Numbered from the stretch's first letter, positions 18,900-40,359 are shown. The stretch: DNA of 64,000 nt from an uncultured Clostridia bacterium (GCA_946184675.1 CAMHFW010000001.1:14822-78821), one strand, 5' to 3'. The notes: generated by a model not told the origin, from the sequence alone. Numbers and translations: made by a program.

Positions 18900-20492
18900 T
18901 TACCAGCCGACATTCTCGCCGCCGCTGCCGTCGTCTGCATAGCTGCCGTCATCGACATAAGCGCTGTCGTCCGCATAGCTGCTGTCATCGGTTATGATGG
19001 TGTCATCCGCGTACATGCCGGAAGCATCTGCTCCGGTGGTCTCTGCCGAATCCTCACCGCTGCCTTCTTCCTCTTTCTGCTTCTTCAGCTGTGCCTGCAC
19101 AGCCTCGATATCCAGACCGTCCTTGATCAGCTGCTGCAGGTATGCTTCTGCATCCGCATAAGCGCTGGAATCCGGATAATCATCCAAAAGCCTCTGATAG
19201 CAGACAGCCGCATTGATGGTATCTCCCAGCTGATGGTAGGATCTTCCCATGTAATAAAGCGCCGTACTGTAACTGTCATCCAGGCGGAGCACCTTGATAA
19301 AGCCCTCTACAGCGGCCAGATATTCCCCGTTTTCGTAGTTGCTCTCTGCCTCCGCAAACAAATCCTCTGCGGCTGCTGTTCCAACCGTTCCCATCATACG
19401 CTTGTAGATGGATTTATCTGTCTCGTCCGTGATTGCTGCCGGATCGATCTCAGCAAGCACCTTAGCCGCCTCGGTACGATTTCCCTGCAGATAATAGTTG
19501 ACTGCCTGCCTGAGAGAGTCTCCGCCGGTTCCGGAACCGGTACTGACGCCTCCCATCTGCGCCTCATAGATGTCAACTTTGTCCTGCAGTTCCTTGACAT
19601 CATTCTCCAGATCGGATATCTGCTTATTTCTCTCGGAAAGCTGGGCGCTGTAATCCACCACCGCTTTATTGTATTCCAAAGTCTTACTCTTGGAAATGGA
19701 AGGCACCAGAAGCAGCCACACCACTGCTGTTCCGATCACGATACCGATCAGAATATTGATAAAAGAGAGAAATCCCGTATTATACTCCGTGTATCCCTGC
19801 CTTCCCTTGTCCTCGATGACAATGGGATTGGGATCGCTGATCCGCATGGCTTCACCGGAACGCAGCCGCTGCGGCCTCTCCACATGCGCATTTACCTCCT
19901 TGAGGTAGCGCAGCGTTGTCATATTGTTTCGGTCAACCTTGACCGCTTTCATCAGAACCTTGCGGGCAGCGGCATAATGCTCACGCCGCATATACAGCAG
20001 GGCCAGCAGCTGATACGCACGGATATAGCCCGGATTCATATTGACGACTTTCTTCAGTTCGATAATGGCCATATCCGGGGTGTCATCATGGATATTCTGC
20101 AAAGCAGTATTATACATGCGTATGATATTGCCTGCTTCCCTTAATTTGTCAGGACGATTCTGGATTTCCTCTATGTAGGAAGACGCAAGATTGCCCTCTC
20201 GGCGGAAATTAGTACTGATGACCCACTCGCTGAGCGCGGAAACAATCTCCCCGGTCTGATAATAGATCAGTCCGAGAAGGTTTCTTGCGTCGATATTTCT
20301 CTTATTATACTTCAGCGCCTGCCGAAGGTGGGTCTCTGCCCCGGAAAGGTCCCTGGCATCGACAAGAGCGAGCGCCTCATTATAATGTCTGTTGGATGCA
20401 TATATTACCTTTTTGACCACCGGATCCTCATAACCGCAATGCGGACAGATATATACATTATCCAGCAGCCAGTCACATCTGCGACAGTTCAT
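18900..20492 (-). CDS. Zinc-ribbon / TPR-repeat single-pass membrane protein with a coiled coil and an acidic YADD-repeat tail
   Basis: N-terminal CRRC...CPHC; TPR-like repeats; TM segment FLSFINILIGIVIGTAVVWLLLV; coiled coil SERNKQISDLENDVKELQDKVD; more TPR repeats; C-terminus DDSSYADDSAYVDDGSYADDGSGG. Confidence 0.75.
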   Translation of the reverse strand: MNCRRCDWLLDNVYICPHCGYEDPVVKKVIYASNRHYNEALALVDARDLSGAETHLRQALKYNKRNIDARNLLGLIYYQTGEIVSALSEWVISTNFRREGNLASSYIEEIQNRPDKLREAGNIIRMYNTALQNIHDDTPDMAIIELKKVVNMNPGYIRAYQLLALLYMRREHYAAARKVLMKAVKVDRNNMTTLRYLKEVNAHVERPQRLRSGEAMRISDPNPIVIEDKGRQGYTEYNTGFLSFINILIGIVIGTAVVWLLLVPSISKSKTLEYNKAVVDYSAQLSERNKQISDLENDVKELQDKVDIYEAQMGGVSTGSGTGGDSLRQAVNYYLQGNRTEAAKVLAEIDPAAITDETDKSIYKRMMGTVGTAAAEDLFAEAESNYENGEYLAAVEGFIKVLRLDDSYSTALYYMGRSYHQLGDTINAAVCYQRLLDDYPDSSAYADAEAYLQQLIKDGLDIEAVQAQLKKQKEEEGSGEDSAETTGADASGMYADDTIITDDSSYADDSAYVDDGSYADDGSGGENVGW

Positions 20493-20508: not shown

Positions 20509-20664
20509 TTAACTCCTGCTGCCGCCGGCGGCTTTGAGTTCCTTTGTAATCTCTTCAATCAGGTCCATAACATCGCGCAGGTCATTCTGATAAATGGCAT
20601 CCTCCGCTTTGTCAATCTCCAGACTGGGCTTAAATTTCTTTAGTTCTTCTTCAAAGTTGATCAT
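20509..20664 (-). CDS. Small hypothetical protein (51 aa), below the ORF-track cutoff
   Basis: Manual translation: MINFEEELKKFKPSLEIDKAEDAIYQNDLRDVMDLIEEITKELKAAGGSRS. A GGGAGGG RBS lies 7 nt upstream. The start overlaps the folC stop by 14 nt, and the ORF's own 3' end supplies the AGGAG for the next gene. Confidence 0.5.
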   Translation of the reverse strand: MINFEEELKKFKPSLEIDKAEDAIYQNDLRDVMDLIEEITKELKAAGGSRS

Positions 20665-21973
20665 CTGTATTCCCTCCCAGAGAGTTCTTGATCATTCCTA
20701 CCAGATACAGAGACCCTGTACAGATCATAATGCCTCTGTCGTCCATTTTCTCACGGCAGGTCCGGATCGCTCCGGCCACATCTGCCGCCACGCGGACACT
20801 TCCGTCAAAGTATTTATGGAACTGACCTGCCACCCGGAGCGGGCTCAGGCTTCTTTCTCCGTCGATCATGGTCACAAATACGCCCTGCAGATTCGGAAGC
20901 TGTCCCAGAACATGTGCCATTTCCGCATAGTCTTTATCATTTGCCACAGCAAAAACAATCCAGACCGGACGGCTGGAAAAGCTGGTCATGATCGACTCTG
21001 CCAGCATCTGCGCGCCGCCGACATTATGCGCGCCGTCCACATAAATCTGCGGAAGGACCTCTTCCAGTCTTCCGGGCCAATGCATCAGGGCCAGACCCTT
21101 GTCAATCGCCTCTTCACTGATCCCTGCAAGTGCCGGGTCGGTCTCCATCAGTCTTCTGACAGCCATCAGGGCCAGGCTGCTGTTTGCGATCTGGTAAACG
21201 CCTCTTGTGTTCAAATGCATGGGCCGGTCGTCCTCTTCACCGGGCAAATGCAGGGAAAAATCGATCTTGCTCCCGTTAATCACCAGATTTTTCACCATGG
21301 AAAAATCAAAGACATCCGGAAAGACACCTTTCTCTTTTGCTTTCTTTCTGATCACCTGCAGCGCCGCCGCATCGGTTCCGTCACAGACCAGGGGAACCCC
21401 TTCCTTGATAATGCCGGCCTTTTCTCCGGCAATCTTCTCAATCGTATCCCCGAGAATCGCCATATGGTCGAAGCTGATTGAAGTGATGACTTCGACTGCA
21501 GGCTTCTTTATAATATTGGTCGCGTCAAGCCTGCCTCCCAGGCCGGTCTCGATCACACCGCAGGACACGCCATTTCTGGAAAACCAGATCATAGCCATCA
21601 GATAAAGCCATTCAAAAAATGTCGGATGCGGGTATCCCTGCGCCGTTCCCTCATCCACTGCTGCCTTTACTTCCTCAAAAAGGGCGGCAAACGCTTCTCT
21701 GGAGATCTGCTTTCCGTCGACCCGCATGCGCTCTGTCATTTCCACCAGATGGGGCGATGTAAACATGCCCGTTCTGATCCCGCCGCTGCGCAGGATACTG
21801 TCAATATAAGCGCATACAGACCCTTTTCCGTTGGTACCCGCTACATGTATATACCGGAAACTCTGTTCCGGATGCCCGAAGCGCTCCAGAAGACGCTCCA
21901 TATTTTCAGCCGACTTTTCTTTGGTAAAACGCGGAATGTCATTGATGTAGGCCACAGCCTCCTGATAATTCAT
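20651..21973 (-). CDS. folC: Bifunctional folylpolyglutamate synthase / dihydrofolate synthase
   Basis: P-loop HVAGTNGKGS and Mur-ligase-type layout; 440 aa. Confidence 0.92.
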   Translation of the reverse strand: MNYQEAVAYINDIPRFTKEKSAENMERLLERFGHPEQSFRYIHVAGTNGKGSVCAYIDSILRSGGIRTGMFTSPHLVEMTERMRVDGKQISREAFAALFEEVKAAVDEGTAQGYPHPTFFEWLYLMAMIWFSRNGVSCGVIETGLGGRLDATNIIKKPAVEVITSISFDHMAILGDTIEKIAGEKAGIIKEGVPLVCDGTDAAALQVIRKKAKEKGVFPDVFDFSMVKNLVINGSKIDFSLHLPGEEDDRPMHLNTRGVYQIANSSLALMAVRRLMETDPALAGISEEAIDKGLALMHWPGRLEEVLPQIYVDGAHNVGGAQMLAESIMTSFSSRPVWIVFAVANDKDYAEMAHVLGQLPNLQGVFVTMIDGERSLSPLRVAGQFHKYFDGSVRVAADVAGAIRTCREKMDDRGIMICTGSLYLVGMIKNSLGGNTDDQL

Positions 21974-22000: not shown

Positions 22001-22744
22001 CTAGTTCTCCAGCAGATAAGGCAGGAAATACCGGATCTGCTTTTTCCACCAGGGCCAGTCATGGCAGACATCATATCCCCAGAGGTCTACCCAGGCCCCG
22101 ATCCCCTTGCGGGAGAAAATGCTCTTTAAATGATGCACCGATGGAAGCCCCTGCTCCTCCCAGGGCCCCTGTCCTGCACAGATAATGATTTTTTTCTGAT
22201 TATAAATATCGATATACGGATGGTCTTCCGGCATATTCTCCAAAAATGATGTCGGAGAATTGTCATAGAGGACATCATTGCACCAGCCGTCCCAGAAATC
22301 CGGTGCATTGTAGCAGCCGGAAAGGCCCAGCATTCCGCCAAACAGGTCCGGGCGGCGGAGAAATACGATCGCAGCGTGTGTCGCGCCAAGGCTGCAGCCC
22401 ATGGTGACCGGCTGCCTGCCTGTCCCATTCACTTCCATGATGTAAGGAAGCGCCTCCTCCACGATATAACGGAAATAGCACTCCTGCATCCAGGCGCGGT
22501 GCCCCTTGTCTCCAAATGTATCTGACCAGCTCTCCCTGTCGATCGTGTCAACCGTGAAAAACTGGATCTGTCCGCTCTCTATATAATCTGCAACCGTATC
22601 GATCATTCCAAACCCTTCATAGTTGTCACACAGACTGTCCTGGGTCGGAAATGCCAGAATCGGAAGGCCGTCATGACCGTGCACCAGGATGTGCATATCA
22701 CGGTTCAAGTGCTGACTGTACTGTGTCAGTTCAAATCTCTGCAT
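22001..22744 (-). CDS. Esterase-family alpha/beta hydrolase
   Basis: GCSLGATHA nucleophile elbow (GxSxG); 247 aa with no signal peptide. Confidence 0.7.
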   Translation of the reverse strand: MQRFELTQYSQHLNRDMHILVHGHDGLPILAFPTQDSLCDNYEGFGMIDTVADYIESGQIQFFTVDTIDRESWSDTFGDKGHRAWMQECYFRYIVEEALPYIMEVNGTGRQPVTMGCSLGATHAAIVFLRRPDLFGGMLGLSGCYNAPDFWDGWCNDVLYDNSPTSFLENMPEDHPYIDIYNQKKIIICAGQGPWEEQGLPSVHHLKSIFSRKGIGAWVDLWGYDVCHDWPWWKKQIRYFLPYLLEN

Positions 22745-22770: not shown

Positions 22771-24864
22771 TTATATGATGTAGCGTTTTTTTGCTTCTTC
22801 TATGTATCTGGCAGTCCCTTCTCTTCCCGGCTGGGCAAGGAGTTCCTCCAATTGTCTGGCACGGTCGGAATCTTCATAGTCCAGCCCCGCCTGATCACAT
22901 TTTTCCGTGATCGAAGCCAGAACGCTCTCCGGGATCCGGTACTTCTCCGCCAGATCATGGAATGCTTCTTCATCTCCGCTCATATAATGGATAGAAAGAC
23001 ATTCACTGACAAGCGTGACATCTTCCTTTTCCTGAAATGCCTTTTGCAGACACTGGACTGCGCTCTGACGATCTCCCAGACGCAGGAGCGCCAGGCCCAT
23101 ATTATGCCAAAGGTCTGACCGGAAGCTCCGGGTCGACGAGGCCTGTGCCTCATGCTCAGAAAGCCAGATAGCATGCTGATACTGCAAAGCTGCAGCCATA
23201 TATCTGCCATAGCGATAGTAATAATCCGCTATCATGCCGGCCCTGGCAGCGGCATCCTGTTTGTCCAGCACAGCAAGAGCTGCTGCCACTTCCTTTTGCT
23301 CTGCCGGCGTGATGTAATCAGAAGCGCCAAAAAGAAAGCGCACCAGATCCGACATAGGCCGGCCCTCTTCCTTCATCCGTCTGAGCGACTCGGAAAAGCG
23401 GTCGTTTCCTGACAAATCATCCAGCCATCCAAAGAGCCTCTCATCGAAAAAGTCCCGGTCCAGTGCCGTAATATTCTCTTTCACATACCAGCACAGTTCA
23501 TCAAAAGCATAAACTCTGGTGCCGGTCCGCGGAATCTGCAAAGGACTCACGCTGCCAGGCAGAGAAGACTCCAGAACCCGGCCTTCTCCCTGCATGGCAA
23601 CCGGCTTTCCGTTTTCCTCTTCTTCCTCCAGCAGAATCTCCTGCTCCCACTTCTTTCCAGAGGAAGGAATCAGCTCGCCAAAGCCCAGATCGCTGAGACT
23701 CAGCTGCAGTCTTTTCTCTTCCAGATACCGGGCATGCACCAGGATCTTGGTCGTCTTTGCAGGCCTCTCCGGCAGCTCTTCCAGAGCGATCGGATATCTG
23801 CGCGTTTCTCCGGTCACCGCGTTCTGCGCGCCAAGTATGATTTCCGACGCGCCGTCCGGCACCAGGCAGACCGTTCCTGCTCCCGTAAACCATGCAGTCT
23901 GCATGGGAATCAGCGGCAGCCTTGCCAGCTTTCCCTTCTGGGAAATATAAAGAAAGATCTCATCTGTCGTCAGCTCTGTGTCCGCTGCGACAAACTCCGG
24001 CCTTGCCTGCGGCATGGCCATATAATAACTGTTGTAGCAGGCTCCTTTTACATAAAAGTTCTGTCCTACAAAAACATGACGCCGTTTAGCGCACAGAGCC
24101 TGCAGCGACCGGTTCATCCAGCTGCTGCCCTCACCTATTTCCTTAAATCCCTCGCCAACCAGATAAAAAGTCGAAATCTTGGTCTCGCCGGCGGCCGCCT
24201 TCAGTGCTTCCAGGAATGCCGCATCGCGGTCCATCTCCTCCTGCACCAGCTCACTGCCGCTCAGGTAGGCACGCAGGTCCTGCATGGCGGCACGTACGAT
24301 CGCCGGGTGTTTCTGACCGGAGATTGACAGGTGTTCATAGCGCAGACCAGCCTGATCATATTCAAAAATACCTACATCATTCATCCACAGTTCATGCCTC
24401 TGGGAAAGCGCGTAAAACTCGGCGCTCAGCATGTGGCTCATAACAGAAAAGGTATTTTCTGCTGCTCCTGTTCTCTCCCTGGCGGCAAGCAATGCCTGGC
24501 AGAGTGCCGGGGTCGTCTCCGGAACGGTAACTGTCAAATATACCCTGGCCTCGTCATCCTCCCCCTCCAGAATCCTGCAGAGAAACTCTCCGATCAGGTC
24601 CGCTTTGGAAAAGGATTCGGTCCCGATCATCAGATCCGGGCTGCCGTCAAGATCCGTCAGAAACCCCCGGACCGGGACACCCTCTCCCGCCTTTTCTGCT
24701 TCTGCAGCCGACTCGCCGGCAAGCCAGCTTCCGTCCGGCTTGCGCAGAAGCAGAGCAGGAATCTCCTGTTCTGCGGCGGGTTCCATTTTTTCCATATCAA
24801 AACAGCTCAGCTGCGATATTCCCTCACAGAGGTCTATCCCGACGATCTTCTCAAAACTATTCAT
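22771..24864 (-). CDS. Degenerate Hsp70/actin-fold protein with a C-terminal TPR-like helical domain (possibly DUF5716-type)
   Basis: IVGIDLCEGISQ (compare Hsp70 IGIDLGTTNS), LTVTVPETT (compare ITVPAYF) and FYLVGEGFK (compare LVGGSTR). The C-terminal ~200 aa are helical-repeat-like. An AGGAG RBS is present. Confidence 0.6.
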   Translation of the reverse strand: MNSFEKIVGIDLCEGISQLSCFDMEKMEPAAEQEIPALLLRKPDGSWLAGESAAEAEKAGEGVPVRGFLTDLDGSPDLMIGTESFSKADLIGEFLCRILEGEDDEARVYLTVTVPETTPALCQALLAARERTGAAENTFSVMSHMLSAEFYALSQRHELWMNDVGIFEYDQAGLRYEHLSISGQKHPAIVRAAMQDLRAYLSGSELVQEEMDRDAAFLEALKAAAGETKISTFYLVGEGFKEIGEGSSWMNRSLQALCAKRRHVFVGQNFYVKGACYNSYYMAMPQARPEFVAADTELTTDEIFLYISQKGKLARLPLIPMQTAWFTGAGTVCLVPDGASEIILGAQNAVTGETRRYPIALEELPERPAKTTKILVHARYLEEKRLQLSLSDLGFGELIPSSGKKWEQEILLEEEEENGKPVAMQGEGRVLESSLPGSVSPLQIPRTGTRVYAFDELCWYVKENITALDRDFFDERLFGWLDDLSGNDRFSESLRRMKEEGRPMSDLVRFLFGASDYITPAEQKEVAAALAVLDKQDAAARAGMIADYYYRYGRYMAAALQYQHAIWLSEHEAQASSTRSFRSDLWHNMGLALLRLGDRQSAVQCLQKAFQEKEDVTLVSECLSIHYMSGDEEAFHDLAEKYRIPESVLASITEKCDQAGLDYEDSDRARQLEELLAQPGREGTARYIEEAKKRYII

Positions 24865-24893
24865 AGCTGCTCCTTAGCTTATATGTTTCCGAT

Positions 24894-27800
24894 CTATCTG
24901 AGTGAAAAGAGCTTTTCCACTGCTCCGTCAAACCTGTCATATTCCCGGATGGTGTCCCTGAGCGTCTCTCTGTCTCCCAGGCGTTCACTCTCAATCATCC
25001 TGCTCACCCAGTCTGCACTGCCTGCTGTCTCGTCTGCTTTCAAAAGACCTGATCCGGCACTGTGCAAAACGCCGTCTCCCTTTTCCGTCAATTCATAGCG
25101 GAGAGTCTCCCCCGCAAACAAACGGAAAGAGGAAACAAAGATTCCGCCGACCGCGCGCTGCATGGGCTCTTCCACTGCCTCATTCCAGTCAGCATCATTC
25201 TTCACATAACGGATGCTGACATTGCAGGCCGGATCCGTAACATATACCAGATAGGTAAAATCTGTCAATGCGCGCGGCACCTGCGCTGTTCCGGAGAACT
25301 TCCGGAAGAACGGCATCAGGATTCCCCTGTTGATAAAAGAAGCGGTCTCATTGTAGATCCCCGTGTGTGCCTCCCCGCTCTTTGCCGTATCCTCGGCATA
25401 ATACCTGATCAGAGCCAGGCTGCACACATCATGCGCCGGTCCGCTCTGCTCCAGTTCGATTTCCAGGATCCGGAACAGATCCGGCTGCGCTTCTTCTTCT
25501 CCCTGCAGATAGCGGTAGGAATACAGTGCCAGGAAGGCTCTGACAATGCGCATATCCGGTCTCTCCCCGTAGTAGACGGTGAAAACACCTCCCGCCTCCG
25601 CAATCATGGACTCTGTAAACAAAGCAGAGCAGAGGAAACGCTCCTCCAGGGCAAAAGCAGGAACTTCAAAAGTCCGGGCCGCCTTCCAGACGGCATAAAG
25701 ATTTTCCACCGGTCCGTTATAATAGCGGACCAGATACTCCAGCATCACCTCATCATAGCGGCCGCTGGCAAATGCGCTGTAGGTCATCTCCGTGAGGAAA
25801 TCCTGCTCCTCATAATTCCTGGCGCGGATGGTCCTGGATGCCAGGCGCATAATACGCTTGACCTGAATATTCTCATAGCCATACTCATTCACCGCGCGAT
25901 AAGCCTTTTCATAAAGGCCGCGCTGAATGAAATACTCTATAATATGCGCTCTCTCAACAGCTCCCAGCAGCCGTATATCGATTTGCAGGAGATACTTTTC
26001 CAGTGTCTCCCCTTCATAATTGTCATAGTAATAATCGATCAGATTCTTTAATACGGTCTTCTGATAATGTCTGCTGACGAAACCCAGTCCCAGGGTCTGT
26101 TTATATACATCAATAGAAGTATCGTCACTCATCTGATACTTGAGGGCCCGCTCGCTTCGGTTCAGCAGTACTCTGGGATCTCCCGGGCACTCCTCATAAC
26201 AGCGGCGGATATATTTCCCCGCATCCATCATCCGGCTGAGTGTATAGTCAACGGTCGACATATATCGGCCGCCCTCCGCATCCTCAAACAGGATCTGATA
26301 GTCATCCAGATACAGGTCAACAATTGCCTGATTATCTGTCAAATCCTCGCAGATTTCCTCCTCCAGCTCCGCATAGCTGACGATGATGCGTTTCAGATGC
26401 GTGATATCGCCATGCACCTGAAGACGCTGCTTGAACATAACTGCAGGAAGTGACTTGATTACATGCGGTGTCAGCGATTCTTTTTTCAGATAATAACTAT
26501 ACAGCTCTGCCAGATTCTCATCGATCCGGCCTGCCCGCAACTGTTCAAACGTGAAAGCGCGGATGATCCCGTTATAATTGTCAAATAATTTCTCCAGTCC
26601 TTCCCGATGCTCGACAACATAGCGATAAAGGAAGGCTCTCTGGGCAACCGGCAGATGATTGTCATACTGGAAATAAATCAGGACAGCCAGCGGGAGCTCC
26701 TTGTCCTCTGTCAGATCCAGGGTGTCCATAAAGGCCTCATAAAGTCCCTGAGTGCGCAGAGCGGAATTGACCCCGAGCAGATAGATCTCATGGTCTTCCC
26801 TGGCCTTGCACCCGCCCTGTACCATCATATGAACAACAGCCTCCAGAACCGGCTTTGACTCATACTTTTCACAATACATCTTCATGGCCTGCAGGTATCC
26901 GGGATGGAAACGGTGCATCCGCAAGGTCAGATCTGCAAACCGGCCTATCACATCGCGGCTGAGCGCATCATAGCGTGCTCCCCAGATAAAGAGACTGCTC
27001 TCAAAATCACCGATCTCTCCCACCGAAGCCGGATTGAGGTTGAGCAGGCGGATGGCCTCCAGATAGTACAGATAACTGTGTCTGCCGCTGCTGTAGAGCT
27101 CTTTGAGCCGGCGCAGCTGCTTCATGACCTGTCCGCTTCCCTGCCGTCTTGGTTCCAGATGATTCAGCATCACGGCAAGTTCCCACTTGTCCTGGTACTG
27201 ACCCTCGGCATAAAAACGGATGGTGTCACGCACATACTGTGTATACTGCTCTTCCTGTCTGCTGCGGGCGTTGACGTAAAGATAATAGCTGTAATCTACG
27301 ACAGACTGATATCGCAGTTCTCTGCCATTGACGCTCTCCAGCACAAAAGCCGCCTGGTCTGCATGCCCGGCCTCCGCCAGCATATCTGCCTCCATCACGT
27401 GGTAGATGGGATTGCTGCTGTTATTCAGACAGCCGTCAATCTCTCCTGCCGCCTTCCGGAACCACTCCGCCTGCGGCATCCTGCCCAGCAGATAATCACG
27501 GTGCAGTTTCCCGTAATCCAGCAGACATCTTTGGAGCCTGCGGCGGGAAAGTTCCTTTTCTCCCTGTTCGCGATCCCTGCGGCACTCGACCGGAATCTCG
27601 ATCCTCTGACTGGCCGACTCCAGAATAATCCTGCCGCCGCAGAACCTGGCCGCTGCAGGGCGGACCCGGTACTCCAGCTGACAAAAGCTCCCCAGAAAAT
27701 CCTCCTCCGTAATCAGCTCTTTATAAACGGATAAAAAGGCTCCTTCGGTGCGCACTTTCAGTCTGACATGCCCCCACTGGCTCTTCTCTATAACCAGACG

Positions 27801-28430
27801 TTCACTAACCGGTCCTTTCAGATTCTGAAACTCAATCAGATTCTGAGAAACCGAGATGGTCACCGGGCTCTTTCTTCTGACTGCACAAAGGAACTCTTCC
27901 ATAGCCAGAGACTTGTCATGGCTTCTGATCAGGCTCTCGTAAATACGCTGGCCCTTTTTATTGCGCAGAAATACGCTCTCAAAACGACTGCTGGTAAATA
28001 CTGCCAGAGCCTCCTGCCAGTCTTCTCTGGCAAGTGCCGCAAACTGATCCAGGTCACTGATCCTTCCCAGGGAACAGTCACAATAAGGCGCACAGATCCG
28101 TACAGTAAAAGGCAGAGAAAGCTCTCCCCCATTACTCACGATCATAATACTGCCTTCGCAGATATCATCCACAGAATAGGCAGAGGAATCAAAATGATAA
28201 TGGATCTGAACATTTTCTCCTGTAACTGATGTTTCTTCACAACGCATCCATCGGCTTGAAGAAAAGATCATCGCACGGATCTCAGCTCCGCTGCGGCTGT
28301 GCAGCTCTACGGTTCCCTCACAGGTCTGGCCATATTCCACATCCAGATTGATCTCGCTGACAGACAGCTCGATGGACGGATCTTCACTTCCAAATATACC
28401 TTTTGACAGATCCTGGATCTTTTTCTTCAT
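24894..28430 (-). CDS. 1178-aa protein of unknown function: N-terminal beta-sandwich-like region plus ~1000 aa of helical repeats (possibly DUF5717-type)
   Basis: Long uninterrupted ORF with no TM segment, signal peptide or catalytic motif that I recognise. It ends 29 nt upstream of the Hsp70-like gene. Confidence 0.6.
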   Translation of the reverse strand: MKKKIQDLSKGIFGSEDPSIELSVSEINLDVEYGQTCEGTVELHSRSGAEIRAMIFSSSRWMRCEETSVTGENVQIHYHFDSSAYSVDDICEGSIMIVSNGGELSLPFTVRICAPYCDCSLGRISDLDQFAALAREDWQEALAVFTSSRFESVFLRNKKGQRIYESLIRSHDKSLAMEEFLCAVRRKSPVTISVSQNLIEFQNLKGPVSERLVIEKSQWGHVRLKVRTEGAFLSVYKELITEEDFLGSFCQLEYRVRPAAARFCGGRIILESASQRIEIPVECRRDREQGEKELSRRRLQRCLLDYGKLHRDYLLGRMPQAEWFRKAAGEIDGCLNNSSNPIYHVMEADMLAEAGHADQAAFVLESVNGRELRYQSVVDYSYYLYVNARSRQEEQYTQYVRDTIRFYAEGQYQDKWELAVMLNHLEPRRQGSGQVMKQLRRLKELYSSGRHSYLYYLEAIRLLNLNPASVGEIGDFESSLFIWGARYDALSRDVIGRFADLTLRMHRFHPGYLQAMKMYCEKYESKPVLEAVVHMMVQGGCKAREDHEIYLLGVNSALRTQGLYEAFMDTLDLTEDKELPLAVLIYFQYDNHLPVAQRAFLYRYVVEHREGLEKLFDNYNGIIRAFTFEQLRAGRIDENLAELYSYYLKKESLTPHVIKSLPAVMFKQRLQVHGDITHLKRIIVSYAELEEEICEDLTDNQAIVDLYLDDYQILFEDAEGGRYMSTVDYTLSRMMDAGKYIRRCYEECPGDPRVLLNRSERALKYQMSDDTSIDVYKQTLGLGFVSRHYQKTVLKNLIDYYYDNYEGETLEKYLLQIDIRLLGAVERAHIIEYFIQRGLYEKAYRAVNEYGYENIQVKRIMRLASRTIRARNYEEQDFLTEMTYSAFASGRYDEVMLEYLVRYYNGPVENLYAVWKAARTFEVPAFALEERFLCSALFTESMIAEAGGVFTVYYGERPDMRIVRAFLALYSYRYLQGEEEAQPDLFRILEIELEQSGPAHDVCSLALIRYYAEDTAKSGEAHTGIYNETASFINRGILMPFFRKFSGTAQVPRALTDFTYLVYVTDPACNVSIRYVKNDADWNEAVEEPMQRAVGGIFVSSFRLFAGETLRYELTEKGDGVLHSAGSGLLKADETAGSADWVSRMIESERLGDRETLRDTIREYDRFDGAVEKLFSLR

Positions 28431-28531
28431 CTTTAGTCACCTTTTCCTCTGCGGCCTTTCGCTCACATACGCAAAATCAGCCCTTCACATAGTTATAGAC
28501 ATTTTACCACTAATCAACTGGAGCATCAACC

Positions 28532-28574
28532 AATAAATAAAAGGCTCCGGACCCCTTTATATGGGTTCGAAGCC
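28532..28574 (-). terminator. Rho-independent terminator after purA
   Basis: On the minus strand: GGCTTCGAACCC-ATATAAA-GGGGTCCGGAGCC, followed by TTTTATTTATT. Confidence 0.6.
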
Positions 28575-28587
28575 TCCTGCTTATCTC

Positions 28588-29865
28588 TTATCTTCGAATG
28601 ATCTCGTGCCTGCCGGGGCCATTGGAGACCATCGTGATCGGGACCTCCAGTTCCTTTTCTATAAACTCGATATAATCCCTGCACTTCTCCGGCAGGTCCT
28701 CATATCGGCTGATTCCCCGGATCTCGCATTTCCATCCGGGAAGAACCTTGTAAACAGGCTTTGCCTTTTTCAAAAGTCTGGTCGTCGGGAAATCGCGGGT
28801 CACCTGACCGTCGATCTCATATCCGATACAAATGGGGATCTCATCCAGATAGCCAAGCACATCCAGCACGGTAAGAGCAACCTCCGTCGCTCCCTGCACA
28901 CGGCAGCCATATCTGGATGCAACCGCATCAAACCAGCCCATTCTTCTGGGTCTTCCGGTCGTAGCTCCGTACTCGCCGCCATCTCCGCCGCGTCTGCGCA
29001 GCTCGTCAGCTTCATCCCCGAAGATCTCCGAAACAAACTCTCCCGCTCCTACAGCACTGGAATACGCCTTTACAACGGTGATCACATCTTTGATCTCATA
29101 GGCGGGAAGTCCCGCGCCTACTGCGCCGTAAGCCGCAAGTGTAGACGATGAAGTTACCATTGGATAAATGCCGAAATCCGGATCCTTCAGCGATCCCAGC
29201 TGGCCCTCCAGCAGAATCCTCTTACCATCACGAACCGCATCATGCAGGAAGGTTCCGACATCGGCCACATACGGCTCAATCATCTGTCTGTACTCCTTAA
29301 GCTCGCGGAAAATCTCCTCCGGATCCAGCTTCTCCTTGTGATACAGATGCTCGATCAGGACATTCTTGATCTCAACAACGCTGCGGACTCTCTCTCGGAG
29401 TGTCTCTTCGTCGTCGAACAAATCGCTGACCTGAAATCCGATCTTGGCAAACTTATCGGAATAGAAAGGCGCGATGCCGGACTTGGTCGATCCAAATGAA
29501 TGACCGGCCAGACGTTCCTCTTCATAAGTGTCCAGAAGAATATGATAAGGCATCATGATCTGTGCTCTGTCAGATACCAGAAGTCTGGGAGCAGGCACGC
29601 CCCTGTCTGTAATATCCTTCAGTTCCCGGATCAGCTTGGGGATGTCAAGTGCCACTCCGTTGCCGATAATGCTTGTCGTATGCGAATAAAAAACGCCGGA
29701 CGGAAGAATATGCAGTGCAAATTTGCCGTAGTCATTGACTATTGTATGTCCTGCATTGCTTCCGCCCTGAAAACGTATAATAATATCAGACTCTTCAGCA
29801 AGCATATCCGTAATCTTGCCCTTGCCTTCGTCTCCCCAGTTTGCTCCTACAATCGCTCTCGCCAT
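28588..29865 (-). CDS. purA: Adenylosuccinate synthase
   Basis: GANWGDEGKGKITD P-loop, GGSNAGHT and TTGRPRR motifs. Confidence 0.96.
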   Translation of the reverse strand: MARAIVGANWGDEGKGKITDMLAEESDIIIRFQGGSNAGHTIVNDYGKFALHILPSGVFYSHTTSIIGNGVALDIPKLIRELKDITDRGVPAPRLLVSDRAQIMMPYHILLDTYEEERLAGHSFGSTKSGIAPFYSDKFAKIGFQVSDLFDDEETLRERVRSVVEIKNVLIEHLYHKEKLDPEEIFRELKEYRQMIEPYVADVGTFLHDAVRDGKRILLEGQLGSLKDPDFGIYPMVTSSSTLAAYGAVGAGLPAYEIKDVITVVKAYSSAVGAGEFVSEIFGDEADELRRRGGDGGEYGATTGRPRRMGWFDAVASRYGCRVQGATEVALTVLDVLGYLDEIPICIGYEIDGQVTRDFPTTRLLKKAKPVYKVLPGWKCEIRGISRYEDLPEKCRDYIEFIEKELEVPITMVSNGPGRHEIIRR

Positions 29866-29952
29866 TTGCTCAGCTCCTTACTTTTTTCGCAGAATCAGTC
29901 AACCCTCTTGACTATCCTCTCTGCCTTCTGTGCAGGTTCCCTTTCTGATGGT

Positions 29953-30201
29953 TCAGATTCCTTTTAACAGATCGAACACGCTCACATTCAGACATGTTGC
30001 CAGTGCGATCACTACGCCCAGTGTCGGGTTTCCCTTTGCATTTTCCAGATCAGAGATATATGTGCGATGAAGCCCGGACATGTCTGCCAGCATCTGCTGT
30101 GAAAGCTTTCTGCTCCTGCGGGTCTTCTTAATGTTGACACTCAGTACGTGCTTCATCCGTTCATTCTTTTCAATCAGGTCTTCTTCAAAACTGCTCATCA
30201 T
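29953..30201 (-). CDS. XRE-family helix-turn-helix transcriptional regulator
   Basis: RKLSQQMLADMSGLHRTYISDLENAKGNPTLGVVIALATCLNV is a classic Cro/C1 HTH. Confidence 0.8.
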   Translation of the reverse strand: MMSSFEEDLIEKNERMKHVLSVNIKKTRRSRKLSQQMLADMSGLHRTYISDLENAKGNPTLGVVIALATCLNVSVFDLLKGI

Positions 30202-30342
30202 TGTTGTCCTCCCCTGTTTTCAAGTAATAATCTTCAGATGTGTTAATTGTATCAATTTTTTATATATTTATCAATGGTATATTTGGAAAATGTAACGTAC
30301 TGACTTATGTGACCATTATTATATTTAATTATCTCACCAGGA

Positions 30343-30378
30343 CAAATAAAAAGAGGCCAGACACACTGTCCGGCCTCT
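30343..30378 (-). terminator. Rho-independent terminator after hbd
   Basis: On the minus strand: AGAGGCCGGAC-AGTGT-GTCTGGCCTCT (11 bp including one G-U pair), followed by TTTTATTT. Confidence 0.75.
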
Positions 30379-30411
30379 GCCTCTGAATAAAAATATCAGA
30401 CTGTTTCGAAA

Positions 30412-31260
30412 TTATTTCTTGCTGTAGTCGTAGAAGCCTGCGCCTGTCTTCATACCAAGCTTGCCGCCGCGAACCATCTTCTTAAGAAGAGTGTGAGGAC
30501 GATACTTGGGATCGCCGGTCTCTGTGTAGAGAACGTTCATGATAGCAAGGCAGATGTCAAGACCGATCAGGTCGCCAAGAGCAAGAGGTCCCATCGGATG
30601 GTTTGCACCAAGCTTCATAGCTGTGTCGATACCCTCAACGCTTGCGATACCGTCAGCATAGATGCCAACTGCTTCGTTGATCATCGGGATCAGAACTCTG
30701 TTAACTACGAATCCAGGACCCTCGTTAACCTGTACAGGAGTCTTGCCGATCTCTTTGGAGATCTCGAAAACTTTGTCAACGGTCTCTGCCGGAGTATTAA
30801 GGCCGGCAATTACCTCGATCAGTTTCATAACAGGTGCGGGATTGAAGAAATGCATACCGATAACAGGTCTGCCGATGCCGGCACCGATCTCTGTGATGGA
30901 CAGAGAGGAAGTATTGGTAGCGAAGATGCACTCGGGTTTAACTCTTGCATCGAGCTCCTTGAAGGTCTCTTTCTTGATAGCCATAACTTCAAGAGCAGCC
31001 TCAACGATCAGATCGCAGTCGTTAAGAAGATCGCTGTCCTTCAGTGCAGGTGTGATCTTAGCAAGGATAGCGTCAGCCTTAGCCTGATCCATCTTACCCT
31101 TAGCAACTCTGCCTGCGAAACCCTTTGCGATCTTGTTGTATCCGCCTTCTGCGAATCTCATCTCGATATCAGTTAAAATAACCTCGTAACCCTCGGTCTG
31201 AGCGAATGCCTGCGCAATACCGGATCCCATGGTGCCGGCACCAATTACTCCAACTTTCAT
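30412..31260 (-). CDS. hbd: 3-hydroxybutyryl-CoA dehydrogenase
   Basis: [17 protein letters not shown] Rossmann motif; 282 aa typical of clostridial Hbd; adjacent to crt. Confidence 0.92.
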
Positions 31261-31364
31261 TGTAATCTACCTCCTTAAGATAAATGATTTTTATTTGCTG
31301 AGGGGGCAAGGCCGCCCGCGGCACGGACAGCCTGCAATCCCGTCAATTCAAGATACAGAAGAAA

Positions 31365-32150
31365 TTAGCAGTTCTTGAAAGGTGCTTTAACCTTCTCTTT
31401 GTTCTTATCAAGGAAGAATGCCATGCCGTACTTCTGGTCCTCAGACTCGAAGCAGCTGCCGAACAGCTTCTCCTCGATAACGATAGCTTCATCCATGCCA
31501 ACCTGGAGACCATCGTTGATGGCTTTCTTGCAGGCGCGAACAGCGATCGGAGCCTGAGCTGCGATCTTCTTCGCAAGCTTCTCAGCTGCGGGAAGAAGCT
31601 CTTCCTGAGTGTAAACTGCGTTTACAAGGCCAAGCTCAAGAGCCTTGGGAGCCTTGATGTTCTTTGCGGAATAGATCAGTTCCTTAGCCATGCCGGGAGC
31701 GATGAGACGGGCAAGTCTCTGTGTGCCGCCGAATCCGGGAGTGATGCCAAGGCCAACCTCGGGCTGTCCGAATACTGCGTTGTCGGAGCAGATACGGATA
31801 TCGCAGCTCATAGCGATCTCATTGCCGCCGCCAAGTGCGAATCCATTGACTGCTGCGATAACGGGGATCGGGAATGTCTCAAGTTTACGGAAGACATCAT
31901 TACCCTTCTTACCGAAAGCCTCGCCCTCTGCCTTTGTAAGGGTGCTCATCTCACCGATGTCAGCGCCTGCTACGAAGGACTTCTGGCCGGAACCTGTGAG
32001 GATCAGACATCTTACTGTGTTAACGTCTACAGCGTCAAGAGCTGCGTCGAGGTCGCCAAGAACCTCAGAGTTAAGAGCGTTAAGAGCCTTCGGACGATCG
32101 ATTGTAAGGATAGCAATATCTCCCTTTACTTCATATAAAACAGTTGACAT
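31365..32150 (-). CDS. crt: Short-chain enoyl-CoA hydratase (crotonase)
   Basis: AGADIGEM, VNGFALGGGNEIAMSCDIRI and the GQPEVGLGITPGFGGTQRL crotonase-fold signature. Confidence 0.92.
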   Translation of the reverse strand: MSTVLYEVKGDIAILTIDRPKALNALNSEVLGDLDAALDAVDVNTVRCLILTGSGQKSFVAGADIGEMSTLTKAEGEAFGKKGNDVFRKLETFPIPVIAAVNGFALGGGNEIAMSCDIRICSDNAVFGQPEVGLGITPGFGGTQRLARLIAPGMAKELIYSAKNIKAPKALELGLVNAVYTQEELLPAAEKLAKKIAAQAPIAVRACKKAINDGLQVGMDEAIVIEEKLFGSCFESEDQKYGMAFFLDKNKEKVKAPFKNC

Positions 32151-32374
32151 TTTTTTAACTTCCTTTCTTTAAAAAAATATTTTTCTTATTCATATCTTAC
32201 AACAATTTTTGTAATAAGTAAAGAGTCGCCCTGTTTTTTATCACAAAATTCATTGTATTTTTTTTATTCTTTAGGGCTTTTTTTCGTTACTTTTGTCCGA
32301 ATTGTTTCAATTGTTCAAAAAAATATTGTTAAAATATGGACAGTCTGCCCGTAGTGTCCACCAGGCTTCTCCGA

Positions 32375-33139
32375 TTATTTCTGCCTGGAGGCTGCAAAAT
32401 ACGGGAGAGCTACGAATACGATGCCTCCGATCATATTGCCGATCGTAACTGCTGCCAGATTGTAGAGGCATCCTCCGGCTGTCACGGCCTGTCCGGAAGG
32501 ATTGAGCAGCACTTCTGTAAACAGGGTCATATTGGCAATACTGTGTTCAAAGCCTGTCGTGATAAATGCGAACAGACACCAGAAGACCATGATCAGCTTG
32601 CCGGCATCGCTTTTTGCGCGGAAGCCGCACCATACCGCCAGGCAGACCAGCATATTACAGAGGGCGCCTCGTGCCAGCAGGGGCACAAAGCCTGCTGAGA
32701 TCTTGCCCATGGCAGCGGCCGCCATGAACTCTCCCGTCGCCCCTGCTCCCAGACCGGTCAGCGTGTAGACAACGCCAAGCAAAGCGCTGCCGCAAAGGTT
32801 CCCCAGCCAGCAGACAATCCAGAGCTTCACCGCCTGGCAGAGTGTCACCTTCTTTTCCAGCATCCCGGCCGCCATCACCAGATTGTTTCCGGTAAACAGC
32901 TCTGCCCCCGCGATGACAACAAGACTCAGCGCAATACCAAAGCTAAGTCCCAGCACCAGCTTGGTATAGGGTGCCCCCTGCAGCTGGGATCCAATGCTGT
33001 TGGTCAGCAGAACGCCAAAGCCGATGAAGGATCCGGCCAGCATGCTGAGCAGAAAGTAGCCAAGCGGATTGTTTTTCAGTAGCTTACATTTTGCCTCCGC
33101 CGCTTTGACTGCGGCCATATATTCCTCATGAAACATCAT
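32375..33139 (-). CDS. Formate/nitrite-transporter-family channel, candidate hydrosulfide channel (HSC/FNT3-like)
   Basis: 254 aa, six-TM FNT layout (AGAELFTGNNL, FEHSIANM). It is the last gene of the asr string. Confidence 0.8.
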   Translation of the reverse strand: MMFHEEYMAAVKAAEAKCKLLKNNPLGYFLLSMLAGSFIGFGVLLTNSIGSQLQGAPYTKLVLGLSFGIALSLVVIAGAELFTGNNLVMAAGMLEKKVTLCQAVKLWIVCWLGNLCGSALLGVVYTLTGLGAGATGEFMAAAAMGKISAGFVPLLARGALCNMLVCLAVWCGFRAKSDAGKLIMVFWCLFAFITTGFEHSIANMTLFTEVLLNPSGQAVTAGGCLYNLAAVTIGNMIGGIVFVALPYFAASRQK

Positions 33140-33197
33140 TCTCTCTCCTTTTTACGTTCCATTTTATGTCTCTTTATGTCTCTGCATCCATTATACT

Positions 33198-33944
33198 CTA
33201 CTTTATGTGAGAAAGCGACGCAAAACATTCACGGACTTGAGGGTTTTCCATCAATCCGCAGCTGCTTACCTGTACCTGCCAGCCTGCCCGGGACAAGATC
33301 CCGGCGGCACAGTCCGGGTGTTCTCCTGCCAGATCCCGCATCATATGCTTTCCTGCAGAAACCAGAAACGGTATCACATGCACTTCTCGGCCGGCATCCC
33401 AGCAGCTGCAGGCAGCCGCCTCCCGGATCCCGGGGACTCCGTGCAGCAAGGCAAAAGAAAGGCGGTCAAATCCCAGAGCCCTCAGTTTCTTTTCTGTTTC
33501 CAGATACAGCAGGTCTGTCTGATCTCCTGCACCGTGTCCGACAAAAAGATAATTCTTCCGCGGATCCAGACCAAGCGCTTTTGCCAGACGCTGCGCAAAA
33601 ATATCTCTGGTTTCCTCTTTTTGTAGGACCGGCTCCAGGATCTGCAGGCTGCCGCAGCCTTCCCACCCTGCCTCGATCTGTTCGCGAAAGGCCGTCCAGG
33701 TCTTTCCGTTTACCAGAAAGGTCGGCAGAACTGTCAGCTTTTCAGGTGCCAGCCGCCGGAGTCTGTCCATCTGTATTTCCAGCGCCTTATCCGGCTCCTC
33801 CCTGAGCAGGGCTTTATTGTAATAGGCCTGCAGGACAGGCAGTCCGGTCTGCTCTTCTATCTCTTTTTGCAGCAAAGCCAGGCCGGAAACCCGGCCCGGC
33901 TCTGCTCTGCCTCCATAAGAAGCAATCAGGATTGCCTCTCTCAT
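33198..33944 (-). CDS. CbiK-type class II chelatase (sirohydrochlorin cobalto-/ferrochelatase)
   Basis: 248 aa. AILIASYG..., a central LFVGHGAGD and a late PFLVSAGKHMMRDL are the two His-containing CbiK/CbiX-like half-sites. The start overlaps the asrC stop by 4 nt. Confidence 0.65.
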   Translation of the reverse strand: MREAILIASYGGRAEPGRVSGLALLQKEIEEQTGLPVLQAYYNKALLREEPDKALEIQMDRLRRLAPEKLTVLPTFLVNGKTWTAFREQIEAGWEGCGSLQILEPVLQKEETRDIFAQRLAKALGLDPRKNYLFVGHGAGDQTDLLYLETEKKLRALGFDRLSFALLHGVPGIREAAACSCWDAGREVHVIPFLVSAGKHMMRDLAGEHPDCAAGILSRAGWQVQVSSCGLMENPQVRECFASLSHIK

Positions 33945-34924
33945 TTTAAGTTGTTGCTGCGGTCATACCGCTTGCCGCCCCAGTAGATTCTGGAAGTAAC
34001 CTCCGCCTTTTCCGGAAGCTCTACGCCTTCCATCACCCATTTGGCAAACTCATCAAATCCGGTGCGGTCCACAATATAGCCGACATGTTCCTTGCCCTCA
34101 ATGGCATTCGGATCGATATACTCTTCCACATAGGCGTAAGCGTTCTTGACAATCTTAAGAATGCTTTCCTCGTCTGCCCATTTGATAAAATCCTCCGCCA
34201 GCCTGGGGTTCTGTTTTCCTGTTCTGCCCAGCAGAACCAGGCGGAAGTAATGTTCCTTGCTCCTGGTCCATGCCCGGGTCGGGCAATAAGCCACGCATAC
34301 GCCGCAGCCGATACACAGATCGGTATCCCGCACAACCTTGCCATTTACCATCGACAAGGCGCCAACGCTCCGCTTCTGGCAGTATTTGACGCACTGCTCA
34401 CATCCCACGCAGCGATCCTTATCATACTGAGGTTCTGTCATGCCGATGATACCGAAATCGTTCATCCGCACCTTTGCGCAGTCATTAGAGCAGCCCGTAA
34501 AGGCCACCTTGAAATGCAGGTTATTGGGGAAAATCGCCTTGTCCATCTTCCGGGCAAAAGCGGTTGTATCATAGCAGCCAAACGGACACAGGCGCGCGCC
34601 GGGACATGCCGCGACATTTCTGGTCCCGGCAGCCGGATATCCCTGGCCCCGTTCCTCCTGGTTCACGCCGCTGTCATCAATGATCTCCTGAAGGGCCAGA
34701 TTGACAACAGGTATATCCTCCATCTTGATGCCGGGCAGCTCCACGCCCTGGCGGTTGGTCACAAAGATCGTACCGTTTCCGTAGTTCTCAGCGATTTCTG
34801 CAATCTTAGCCATGCTCTTCGCATTGATCACACCACCGGGTATCCGGATCCGGCTGGCCGTCTCGCCTCTGACCTTCGAATTACGGAAGGCGTTCTTTTT
34901 CAGTTTTTTCATGTTAACATCCAT
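33941..34924 (-). CDS. asrC: Anaerobic sulfite reductase subunit C (siroheme / [4Fe-4S])
   Basis: Nitrite/sulfite reductase ferredoxin-like fold; CPGARLCPFGC...TGCSNDCAK siroheme-cluster Cys set; ferredoxin inserts CVGCEQCVKYC and CIGCGVCVAYC. Confidence 0.88.
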   Translation of the reverse strand: MDVNMKKLKKNAFRNSKVRGETASRIRIPGGVINAKSMAKIAEIAENYGNGTIFVTNRQGVELPGIKMEDIPVVNLALQEIIDDSGVNQEERGQGYPAAGTRNVAACPGARLCPFGCYDTTAFARKMDKAIFPNNLHFKVAFTGCSNDCAKVRMNDFGIIGMTEPQYDKDRCVGCEQCVKYCQKRSVGALSMVNGKVVRDTDLCIGCGVCVAYCPTRAWTRSKEHYFRLVLLGRTGKQNPRLAEDFIKWADEESILKIVKNAYAYVEEYIDPNAIEGKEHVGYIVDRTGFDEFAKWVMEGVELPEKAEVTSRIYWGGKRYDRSNNLK

Positions 34925-34939
34925 CGATCTGCACCTCCC

Positions 34940-35728
34940 TTAATCCAGCATATCTTTGCTCTGCGTATAGTTAAAGACCGGCCCGTCCAGACAGACATAA
35001 TTCATGCCGATGCGGCAATGGCCGCATTTGCCGAGACCGCAGCACATCTTTCTCTCCTGGGAAACCCAGATGTTTTCTTCTTTGAAGCCTTTCTGCAGAA
35101 GACCCTGGACAGAAAAGCGCATCATAGGAGGCGGTCCGACTACCACAGCCTGGGCAGTGGCCGGATCGCGCAGGGGCAGATCCGGAATGTACTTGGTTAC
35201 CAGACCGATATTGCCGGTATAGTCCTCCGGCGCCCCGTCCACAGTCAGAATCAGATCCAGTTTCTCTGCCCAGTCTTTCAGATCGGCTCTGAAAAGCATG
35301 TCATCCGGACTTCTGAAGCCAACGATGACGTGCTTGTCCCCGGCATCAGACGTCTCTGCCAATGCGCTGATCACACCGCGCACCGGGCTTACACCTGTGC
35401 CGCCTGCCACAACGACTACTTCGCCATGCTCATACAAAGCGATGTCGAACCCGTTCCCGTAAGGCCCGCGCAGCAAAAGGCTCTGTCCTGCGTAATGCTC
35501 AAAAACCTCACCTGTTACCCGGCCAACTTTTCGTATGGTCAGATCCACATAGTCCGGGCCGATGCCGCTGACGGAGATCGGTGCCTCGCCGTATTTTGGC
35601 ATGGAAACCTCAAAGAACTGTCCCGGCTTCACCTCTCCGACATACTTCATACGGAAAGTGTATTCCTTTGCGGTGTGCTGAATGACCTCCAGAATCTCGG
35701 AGGGAAAAGGAATATAGGGATTACTCAT
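34940..35728 (-). CDS. asrB: Anaerobic sulfite reductase subunit B (FAD/NAD-binding, [2Fe-2S])
   Basis: FNR-like fold, GGTGVSP, and C-terminal CCGLGKCGHCRIG. The ATG at 35728 overlaps the asrA stop (ATGAGTAA). Confidence 0.88.
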   Translation of the reverse strand: MSNPYIPFPSEILEVIQHTAKEYTFRMKYVGEVKPGQFFEVSMPKYGEAPISVSGIGPDYVDLTIRKVGRVTGEVFEHYAGQSLLLRGPYGNGFDIALYEHGEVVVVAGGTGVSPVRGVISALAETSDAGDKHVIVGFRSPDDMLFRADLKDWAEKLDLILTVDGAPEDYTGNIGLVTKYIPDLPLRDPATAQAVVVGPPPMMRFSVQGLLQKGFKEENIWVSQERKMCCGLGKCGHCRIGMNYVCLDGPVFNYTQSKDMLD

Positions 35729-36749: not shown

Positions 36750-36774
36750 GCACCTCCTGTTTCATATATTGCAT

Positions 36775-39434: not shown

Positions 39435-39571
39435 TTTCAATAAACTTCTTTCTTTGATAATATGTATCAATTACAAAAGAATACAAACAACTCTTGCACA
39501 GAAGATTGTTATTTATTATACTAATTCTTACAAAGTATTTCGGTTGTTATAACAACATGTGAGGTGTTTTC

Positions 39572-40246: not shown

Positions 40247-40276
40247 AGCGCCCTTACCGCCACTGGCAAACAGAAG

Positions 40277-40320: not shown

Positions 40321-40359
40321 TTCTCAACCCATATTTACACACTTTTGTTTTTGATGATA

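Follow-up and report, generated by a model that had tools for sequence, protein, structure and literature searches.

In a stretch of 64,000 nucleotides (nt) from an uncultured Clostridia bacterium (GCA_946184675.1 CAMHFW010000001.1:14822-78821; the whole stretch is called the window here), two adjacent genes code for a 1178-amino acid (aa) protein of the DUF5717 family and a 697-aa protein of the DUF5716 family. The 697-aa protein is a true relative of Hsp70 in which the catalytic motifs have been lost and to which a TPR subunit is evidently fused; the 1178-aa protein looks, in its predicted structure, like a scaffold of beta domains and TPR-like solenoids. We favour, at a probability of roughly one in two, the reading that both proteins belong, as subunits, to a single lineage-specific complex of Lachnospiraceae that binds proteins without the use of ATP and has no enzymatic activity. 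Both families exist in Pfam as domains of unknown function (DUFs). New are the Hsp70 homology, shown together with the missing ATPase machinery, a domain-by-domain map of the scaffold, an evidently ancestral four-gene operon, the joining of two of its genes and the disappearance of the membrane subunit in the clade of the window, and the quantified linkage of the two genes. The literature on DUF5716, DUF5717 and their Pfam accessions yielded no characterised function, as had been assumed in a preliminary description of this DNA.

The two genes are listed with the evidence for each.

24894..28430, minus strand: DUF5717 gene (1178 aa, predicted cytoplasmic scaffold); open reading frame (ORF), PF18984 and PF18983, AlphaFold2 model.
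22771..24864, minus strand: DUF5716 gene (697 aa, degenerate Hsp70 homologue with fused TPR subunit); ORF, PF18980, model, Foldseek.

The preliminary description had given two large linked ORFs on the same strand, 29 nt apart, which stands with the correction that the strand is the minus strand; the families DUF5716 and DUF5717 that it named agree with Pfam (PF18980, PF18983, PF18984), and its statement that neither protein has a transmembrane segment is borne out, no such segment being found in either (maximum 19-residue Kyte-Doolittle mean 1.28 for the 1178-aa and 1.15 for the 697-aa protein). PF18980 (DUF5716_C) matches aa 110-410 of the 697-aa protein (E=1.6e-74, 251 bits, gathering cut-off 34.7). 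In the 1178-aa protein, PF18984 (DUF5717_N) is matched over model positions 1-875 of 875 (E=3.9e-237, 789.7 bits) and PF18983 (DUF5717) over positions 2-306 of 306 (E=6.9e-71, 239.4 bits), with a cut-off of 25 for both.

The motifs that had first suggested a degenerate Hsp70/actin fold are present in the translation of the 697-aa protein: IVGIDLCEGISQ at aa 7-18, LTVTVPETT at aa 110-118, and FYLVGEGFK at aa 233-241. As a single sequence the protein found TPR matches only in the PDB, and Pfam HSP70 (PF00012) was matched neither by the whole protein at E<=0.01 nor by aa 1-290 at E<=5. Family profiles of the first ~420 residues of DUF5716 proteins, built from 11 and then from 130 sequences, had DnaK chains as their only significant PDB matches (E=3.9e-5 and 5.6e-5, respectively). 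Profile positions 6-142 align with DnaK residues 4-137, that is, lobe I of the nucleotide-binding domain; positions 365-408 align with DnaK residues 426-469 (chain 6w6e, DnaK of M. tuberculosis), which form the final hairpin of the beta substrate-binding domain (the GIPPAPRG...IEVTFDIDANG...D-K-x-x-G-K region). The two matched stretches are collinear, one in a nucleotide-binding domain and one in a beta substrate-binding domain. For the AlphaFold2 model of the protein (mean predicted local distance difference test, pLDDT, 86.5; predicted template-modelling score, pTM, 0.73), the top 50 Foldseek matches in the PDB are all of the Hsp70 family (DnaK, BiP, Hsc70, Hsp110, Ssz1), with E=2e-15 to 3e-10 over 510-720 aligned columns; the best is 7kru, DnaK, with E=2.1e-15. 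Because of the profile matches to DnaK and these Foldseek matches, the 697-aa protein is a true Hsp70 relative with both signature domains, and more than an actin-fold protein, which sharpens the earlier fold assignment.

24010..24864, minus strand: Hsp70-like nucleotide-binding domain, aa 1-285; family profile, column counts, model secondary structure.
23632..23994, minus strand: Hsp70-like beta substrate-binding domain, aa 291-411, ending in D392-x-G-F-G; profile alignment to DnaK.

What the protein shares with DnaK is the collinear succession of a nucleotide-binding domain, a hydrophobic linker and a substrate-binding domain of beta-sandwich type, and the motif remnants IxGIDLG, LVGG and NxxxAxGAA together with the hairpin matching GIPPAPRG...D-K-x-x-G-K. 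The differences are concentrated in the parts that handle ATP. In alignment columns over 130 family members, the G of the IxGIDLG motif is retained in 95% and the D (D11) in 88%; the phosphate-binding T11 and T12 of DnaK are replaced mostly by D/N and D/E, the catalytic K70 by L/V/I (the position after A53), the catalytic glutamate E171 by H, Y or R, and the DLGGGT phosphate-2 loop (D194-GGGT199) by D-V-(G/A/V)-L-F-D. The residues invariant in all 130 members, G237, G274, D392, G394 and G396, look structural. The nucleotide-binding domain has ~285 aa versus ~383 aa in DnaK, a difference of ~100 aa, and in the model a single helix (within aa 197-229) stands between strands 188-196 and 230-236, where the ~80-aa lobe IIB would be expected; lobe IIB thus appears to be absent, as judged from length, element order and secondary structure, not from a superposition. 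The helical lid (alpha part of the substrate-binding domain) is absent from the model, in which strand 405-411 is followed by a linker and TPR-like helices, and short-form homologues terminate near residue 420 without a lid. An hhalign comparison of the family with E. coli DnaK aligned residues 6-150 only, with poor statistics, and hmmsearch at maximum sensitivity against the same protein did not align lobe II; because profile alignments stop at ~150, the mapping of residues past about DnaK 150-170 rests on motif order and secondary structure.

Motifs and model indicate that lobe IIB, both phosphate-binding threonines, the lysine and glutamate of catalysis, the glycine-rich phosphate-2 loop and the lid have been lost; the 697-aa protein therefore most likely no longer cycles ATP, and it may not bind nucleotide. 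The HPD motif of J domains occurs in neither the 697-aa nor the 1178-aa protein, the neighbours checked include no member of the DnaJ or GrpE families, and the TPR module that is fused here or encoded next door sets the system further apart from DnaK. The ATP cycle implied by the earlier proposal of a dedicated chaperone machine does not agree with these losses. An active, ATP-driven specialised Hsp70 system, with the 1178-aa protein as co-chaperone or dedicated client, is to be weighed on both sides: the homology is real, the beta substrate-binding domain, D11 (at the frequency given above) and the adenosine-motif glycines G237/G239 are retained, TPR proteins are classical Hsp70 partners, and the profile of the separate relatives of the TPR part (ORF cluster c2, below) weakly matches the TPR domains of FKBP51/52 and SGTA; against this, the phosphate-1 threonines, K70, E171 and the GGGT loop are conserved nowhere in the family, and lobe IIB, lid, HPD and DnaJ/GrpE partners are lacking as described. 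We consider an active Hsp70 system unlikely.

The composition of the module was derived from related loci. A DUF5716 profile scan of 185,579 species genomes gave 299 relatives; counts of genome loci rest on the 80 listed, and the ORFs of these 80 loci were clustered. Most of them have an Hsp70-like gene of ~422 aa (short form), followed by a gene for a 278-aa protein (cluster c2) and one for a protein of ~410 aa (cluster c3). The 46 c2 proteins, compared with the window, gave 40 hits, all to ~22774..23583 (best 7e-28); on the 697-aa protein, they align to aa 428-681. The c2 family profile matches consensus and natural TPR proteins with E=7e-25 to 5e-6, so that by family profile the C-terminal tail of the 697-aa protein is to be counted as TPR; as a single sequence, it reaches 22.5-25.1 bits with Pfam TPR_1, under the cut-off of 27.8, and matches a designed TPR in the PDB with E=9e-9.

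22774..23583, minus strand: fused TPR subunit, aa 428-697; homologue of the stand-alone 278-aa c2 gene; c2 hits and c2 family profile.
23029-23232, minus strand: clearest TPR pair, aa ~545-612, within the fused TPR subunit.

Because separate c2 proteins align to the tail, the 697-aa protein is evidently the product of two genes that have been fused here and that most relatives keep apart. Its Hsp70-like and TPR parts very probably bind each other, for which the fusion of what are neighbouring genes elsewhere offers good, if indirect, evidence. The identity of DUF5717 to the window protein is 38-52% in loci with the fused (long) form and 24-32% in short-form loci, a split that fits a single fusion clade.

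Some details of the tail were noted in passing. An acidic linker, LEEEEENG (aa 412-424, nt ~23593-23631), connects the TPR part with the substrate-binding domain; the C-terminus of short-form proteins is W-E-K-E-I-x-F/L, which the TPR subunit may bind by analogy with the binding of EEVD by eukaryotic TPR co-chaperones. The TPR tail was also considered as a paralogue of part of DUF5717, which was rejected at an hhalign probability of 0.3%. One family member, P0076 (572 aa, ENA), carries precomputed Pfam matches to Peptidase_S41 (PF03572) and DUF5716_C, either a gene-calling fusion or a real variant architecture.

Proteins of cluster c3 have coiled-coil regions flanking two hydrophobic, predicted transmembrane segments in the middle of the protein, and share the motifs EYQxVTxYLxDIQ, KIKYVNNxNxLDY and EMVEIRHxLNxRRQKLR. 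An example is L021:12171-13400 (plus strand; an Anaerocolumna locus), with equivalents in 38 other loci, among them L082:10148-11332 (Anaeromicropila populeti). Searches of c3 against Pfam and the PDB gave no informative relative, the weak matches to DUF2207_C running through the transmembrane hairpin. Where the locus has room for it, a separate c2 gene is followed by c3 in 37 of 39 cases; c3 is present in none of the 21 long-form loci; no c3 homologue occurs within the 64-kb window. In Anaeromicropila populeti, an independent gene call gives a tight four-gene operon with gaps of 3, 19 and 16 nt, flanked by an aminotransferase gene and valS. The ancestral module evidently comprised four genes, one of them coding for a membrane protein, and the clade of the window has one fused gene for the Hsp70-like and TPR parts and no membrane gene at the locus; the fusion and the four-gene module with its membrane protein had both been missed in the preliminary description. 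A 188-aa gene that follows the long-form gene in Frisingicoccus-type loci was tried as a remnant of c3 and rejected, having no BLAST or hidden Markov model similarity to c3; by the look of its sequence we take it to be a GlpP-type antiterminator.

The linkage of the two families was counted from both sides. Of the 80 loci found with DUF5716, 79 have DUF5717 as the next gene upstream in the same orientation, and the 80th is cut at a contig end; conversely, among 43 metagenome loci found with DUF5717, 24 were testable, and DUF5716 lies directly downstream in 23 of these and is present in the 24th, with its best alignment starting from residue 92. Co-conservation of the two genes as neighbours is essentially absolute, and over the testable loci adjacency is complete from either side (79/79 and 24/24). 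The 80 listed relatives are all from Lachnospiraceae-type or unclassified Clostridiales genomes, among them the genera Coprococcus, Anaerocolumna, Frisingicoccus, Jutongia, Roseburia, Catenibacillus and Lachnoclostridium, and the family appears to be restricted to Lachnospiraceae; it forms 1,837 clusters at 50% identity (E<=0.001), mostly of the short form.

Conserved neighbours of the module are purA, an aminotransferase gene, valS and folC, and the window also holds butyrate-pathway genes. The preliminary description had correctly placed an esterase gene 26 nt and folC a further 27 nt downstream of the pair (ORFs, Pfam, TIGR01499) and had treated them as linked to it; because the esterase adjoins only in the Coprococcus-like clade, both are left outside the module, and their position is taken as lineage-specific synteny. 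The identity of DUF5717 tracks that of purA (Spearman 0.60, p=0.006, n=19), and the module appears, from these comparisons, to be inherited vertically in a conserved housekeeping context. Neither protein matched any PADLOC-DB v2 family at E<=1, and PHROGs gave no match. Among 2.9 million viral contigs (IMG/VR), a single DUF5716 relative was found; the locus (L083; IMGVR_UViG_3300007793_000024, 29522-40718) lies at one end of its 41-kb contig and has the ordinary four-gene operon, flanked as usual by the aminotransferase gene, and the operon region looks like host chromosome.

These data bear on a second alternative, a conflict or anti-phage system with the protein of two transmembrane segments as effector. 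CnuD of type III CoCoNuT restriction systems combines degenerate Hsp70-like nucleotide- and substrate-binding domains with HEAT-like repeats and is predicted to hydrolyse ATP poorly; the systems are defined by CnuD, a McrB-like GTPase (CnuB) and a McrC N-terminal domain (DUF2357) (PMC11090510). In GAP1-N2 GTPase-centric conflict systems, HSP70/GrpE modules occur with FNIII-repeat proteins fused to DnaJ or TPR (PMC7159879). The DUF pair resembles the former in the degenerate Hsp70-like domains with helical repeats and the latter in an Hsp70-family gene beside a protein combining beta-sandwich repeats with TPR; most operons have the two-segment membrane partner, and the sequences diverge fast. 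Unlike either system, the neighbourhoods examined contain no McrB/McrC, GTPase, GrpE or DnaJ domain, nor a HEPN or other nuclease or any other effector domain; the module holds a fixed chromosomal position among housekeeping genes across genera, its divergence tracks purA, PADLOC is silent, and the clade of the window keeps the pair without the membrane gene. A defence function for the module is therefore judged improbable.

An actin-like polymerising cytoskeletal element, with filaments organised by the scaffold and mostly also by a membrane anchor, would be compatible with the ASKHA fold of the nucleotide-binding domain and with the membrane-anchored coiled-coil partner in most operons, but the top structure and sequence matches are all Hsp70s with a substrate-binding domain and none is MreB, ParM, FtsA or actin, and the nucleotide-site residues for polymerisation dynamics are missing, which makes it very unlikely.

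The 1178-aa protein was described from its AlphaFold2 model (mean pLDDT 86); a single-sequence search of the PDB gave no match for it. It had been thought to consist of one N-terminal beta-sandwich and ~1000 aa of helices; the model instead shows four beta domains interleaved with two solenoids.

28059..28373, minus strand: beta-sandwich 1, Ig-like, aa 20-124; model secondary structure, Foldseek.
Minus-strand gene, aa 127-183: helical linker; model.
27579..27857, minus strand: beta-sandwich 2, aa 192-284; model, Foldseek.
26436..27560, minus strand: alpha-solenoid 1, TPR/HAT-like, aa 291-665; model helix array, Foldseek.
26232..26432, minus strand: small beta domain, aa 667-733; model.
25263..26222, minus strand: alpha-solenoid 2, aa 737-1056; model, Foldseek.
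25038..25256, minus strand: C-terminal beta-sandwich, aa 1059-1131, inside the PF18983 match; model.
24903-25019, minus strand: two terminal helices, aa 1138-1176; model.

The best Foldseek matches of the N-terminal tandem sandwiches in the PDB are ASH/PapD-like domains, with E=1e-6 to 6e-4 (hydin-type central-pair proteins, 7sqc and 9ijj; CEP192 SPD-2, 9fh8; OCRL ASH, 3qbt). The solenoids match Ctr9, Naa15, Ski3, Prp6 and an Integrator subunit with E=1e-5 to 5e-4. With low template-modelling scores and 6-16% identity, these likenesses to TPR/HAT scaffolds and ASH proteins are of generic fold only, and no Pfam match to ASH, PapD or TPR was found in DUF5717. From the model, and with Foldseek matches confined to Ig-like/ASH and TPR/HAT scaffold proteins, the 1178-aa protein looks like a scaffold of four beta domains and two TPR-like solenoids, without a conserved catalytic constellation. 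It can hardly be an enzyme, for instance a carbohydrate-active one with the Hsp70-like protein as accessory: the alternation of beta-sandwiches and helices is superficially like some glycoside hydrolases and lyases, and matches in the viral structure library BFVD include BACON and GH5-containing proteins, but these are generic and run through Ig-like domains only, Pfam and PDB sequence searches gave no enzyme family, the helical parts match TPR/HAT scaffolds, glycine and hydrophobic residues make up nearly all invariant positions (exceptions: K187, C744), and the protein has no signal peptide and is read as cytoplasmic.

In the favoured reading of the pair as subunits of an ATP-independent protein-binding complex, the two proteins would physically associate, and the module would act as scaffold or holdase. 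The 697-aa subunit, descended from Hsp70, would serve as a permanent peptide clamp or adaptor, its substrate-binding domain and TPR module holding peptide segments of partners or clients; DUF5717 would provide a large Ig/TPR platform, and c3 would anchor the assembly to the membrane in most lineages, the lineage of the window excepted. Neither a foldase driven by ATP nor a defence system is meant: the whole might be a holdase, assembly or localisation platform for a client. In its logic, it may be closest to the Ssz1-Zuotin ribosome-associated complex (RAC; PDB 6sr6, 5mb9, 7x3k), in which an Hsp70-family protein with an impaired or absent ATPase cycle forms a permanent pair with a large partner that is mostly helical; structures of Ssz1 stand at Foldseek ranks 41, 45, 46 and 49 for the 697-aa model. 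Unlike Zuotin, the DUF5717 partner has no J domain, and the likeness is one of logic, orthology not being claimed.

Several points weigh against this reading. Both proteins diverge much faster than their housekeeping neighbours (35-52% identity vs ~84% for purA), and fast divergence also marks conflict systems. The membrane subunit is absent in the clade of the window, so the picture of a tethered complex may not apply here. The loss of the lobe II residues is read through the motif-order mapping past DnaK ~170 and is probable to that extent. D11 and the adenosine-motif G237/G239 are retained, and some degenerate Hsp70s, e.g. Ssz1, still bind nucleotide.

Hsp70 is among the best-understood molecular machines; the reuse of inactivated Hsp70s as structural subunits is, to our knowledge, rare and mostly eukaryotic (Ssz1). 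Here, a bacterial family of ~1,800 clusters at 50% identity has had its ATPase core stripped and its lid exchanged for a TPR subunit, and is genetically locked to a scaffold of ~1,180 residues. Because ~5.6 kb of conserved chromosome is devoted to the pair, a real function that justifies this cost is probable. Two DUF labels are turned into a domain-level model that predicts no ATP turnover, a stable heteromer and, in most lineages, membrane tethering; the clade of the window can be regarded as a natural gene-fusion experiment. A bolder and more doubtful proposal, which we put forward tentatively, is that of a Lachnospiraceae-wide pseudo-chaperone machine: an ATP-independent, Hsp70-derived clamp within a very large Ig/TPR scaffold, with the coiled-coil subunit of two transmembrane segments as its ancestral membrane tether, and serving a core cellular task. 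If true, that task might be to assemble, localise or check the quality of a structure specific to the lineage, in very abundant human gut bacteria, and bacteria would have a counterpart of the 'structural Hsp70' complexes of eukaryotes, such as RAC. Lachnospiraceae are a dominant butyrate-producing group in the human gut.

Around the pair, the 29-nt gap between DUF5717 and DUF5716 is followed by gaps of 26 nt to ORF 22001..22744 (Pfam Esterase, E=5e-11) and 27 nt to ORF 20651..21973 (FolC; TIGR01499, E=6e-111). The start codon of DUF5716 is preceded, six bases 5', by an AAGGAG ribosome-binding site. The pair has purA upstream, and two signals lie between them, the promoter-like site directly following the purA terminator; an Rfam search near the locus gave no RNA element.

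28532..28574, minus strand: purA terminator hairpin and U-run, between purA and the module; RNA fold and sequence.
28501..28529, minus strand: promoter-like site for the module (TTGATG, 17 nt, TAAAAT, with TG as extended -10); consensus scan alone.

The hairpin has a folding energy of -25.5 kcal/mol (z=-4.9; 0 of 200 shuffles equally stable); it was not picked up by the consensus terminator scan.

Further afield, a 530-aa TPR-rich protein is encoded at window positions 18900-20492 (minus strand), 158 nt downstream of folC; 13 of the 80 genome loci have a homologue a few kb further downstream than the module, usually after valS, and the protein seems to be part of the conserved valS/folC block, separate from the DUF pair. 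Upstream of purA are genes for 3-hydroxyacyl-CoA dehydrogenase and a crotonase-type enoyl-CoA hydratase (30412-31260 and 31365-32150, both minus strand), in an order identical in Coprococcus loci, which fits the chromosome of a butyrate-producing Lachnospiraceae member. At 32375-36749 (minus strand) follow a formate/nitrite transporter gene, a CbiK-like chelatase gene, and three genes like those for anaerobic sulfite reductase subunits (NIR_SIR, NAD-binding/FeS, 4Fe-4S dicluster). Ordinary chromosomal features of the window are a cluster of five tRNAs at 40360-40854 (minus strand; Leu, Gln, His, Arg, Pro) and an S10-Clostridia ribosomal-protein leader at 6924-7006 (minus strand).

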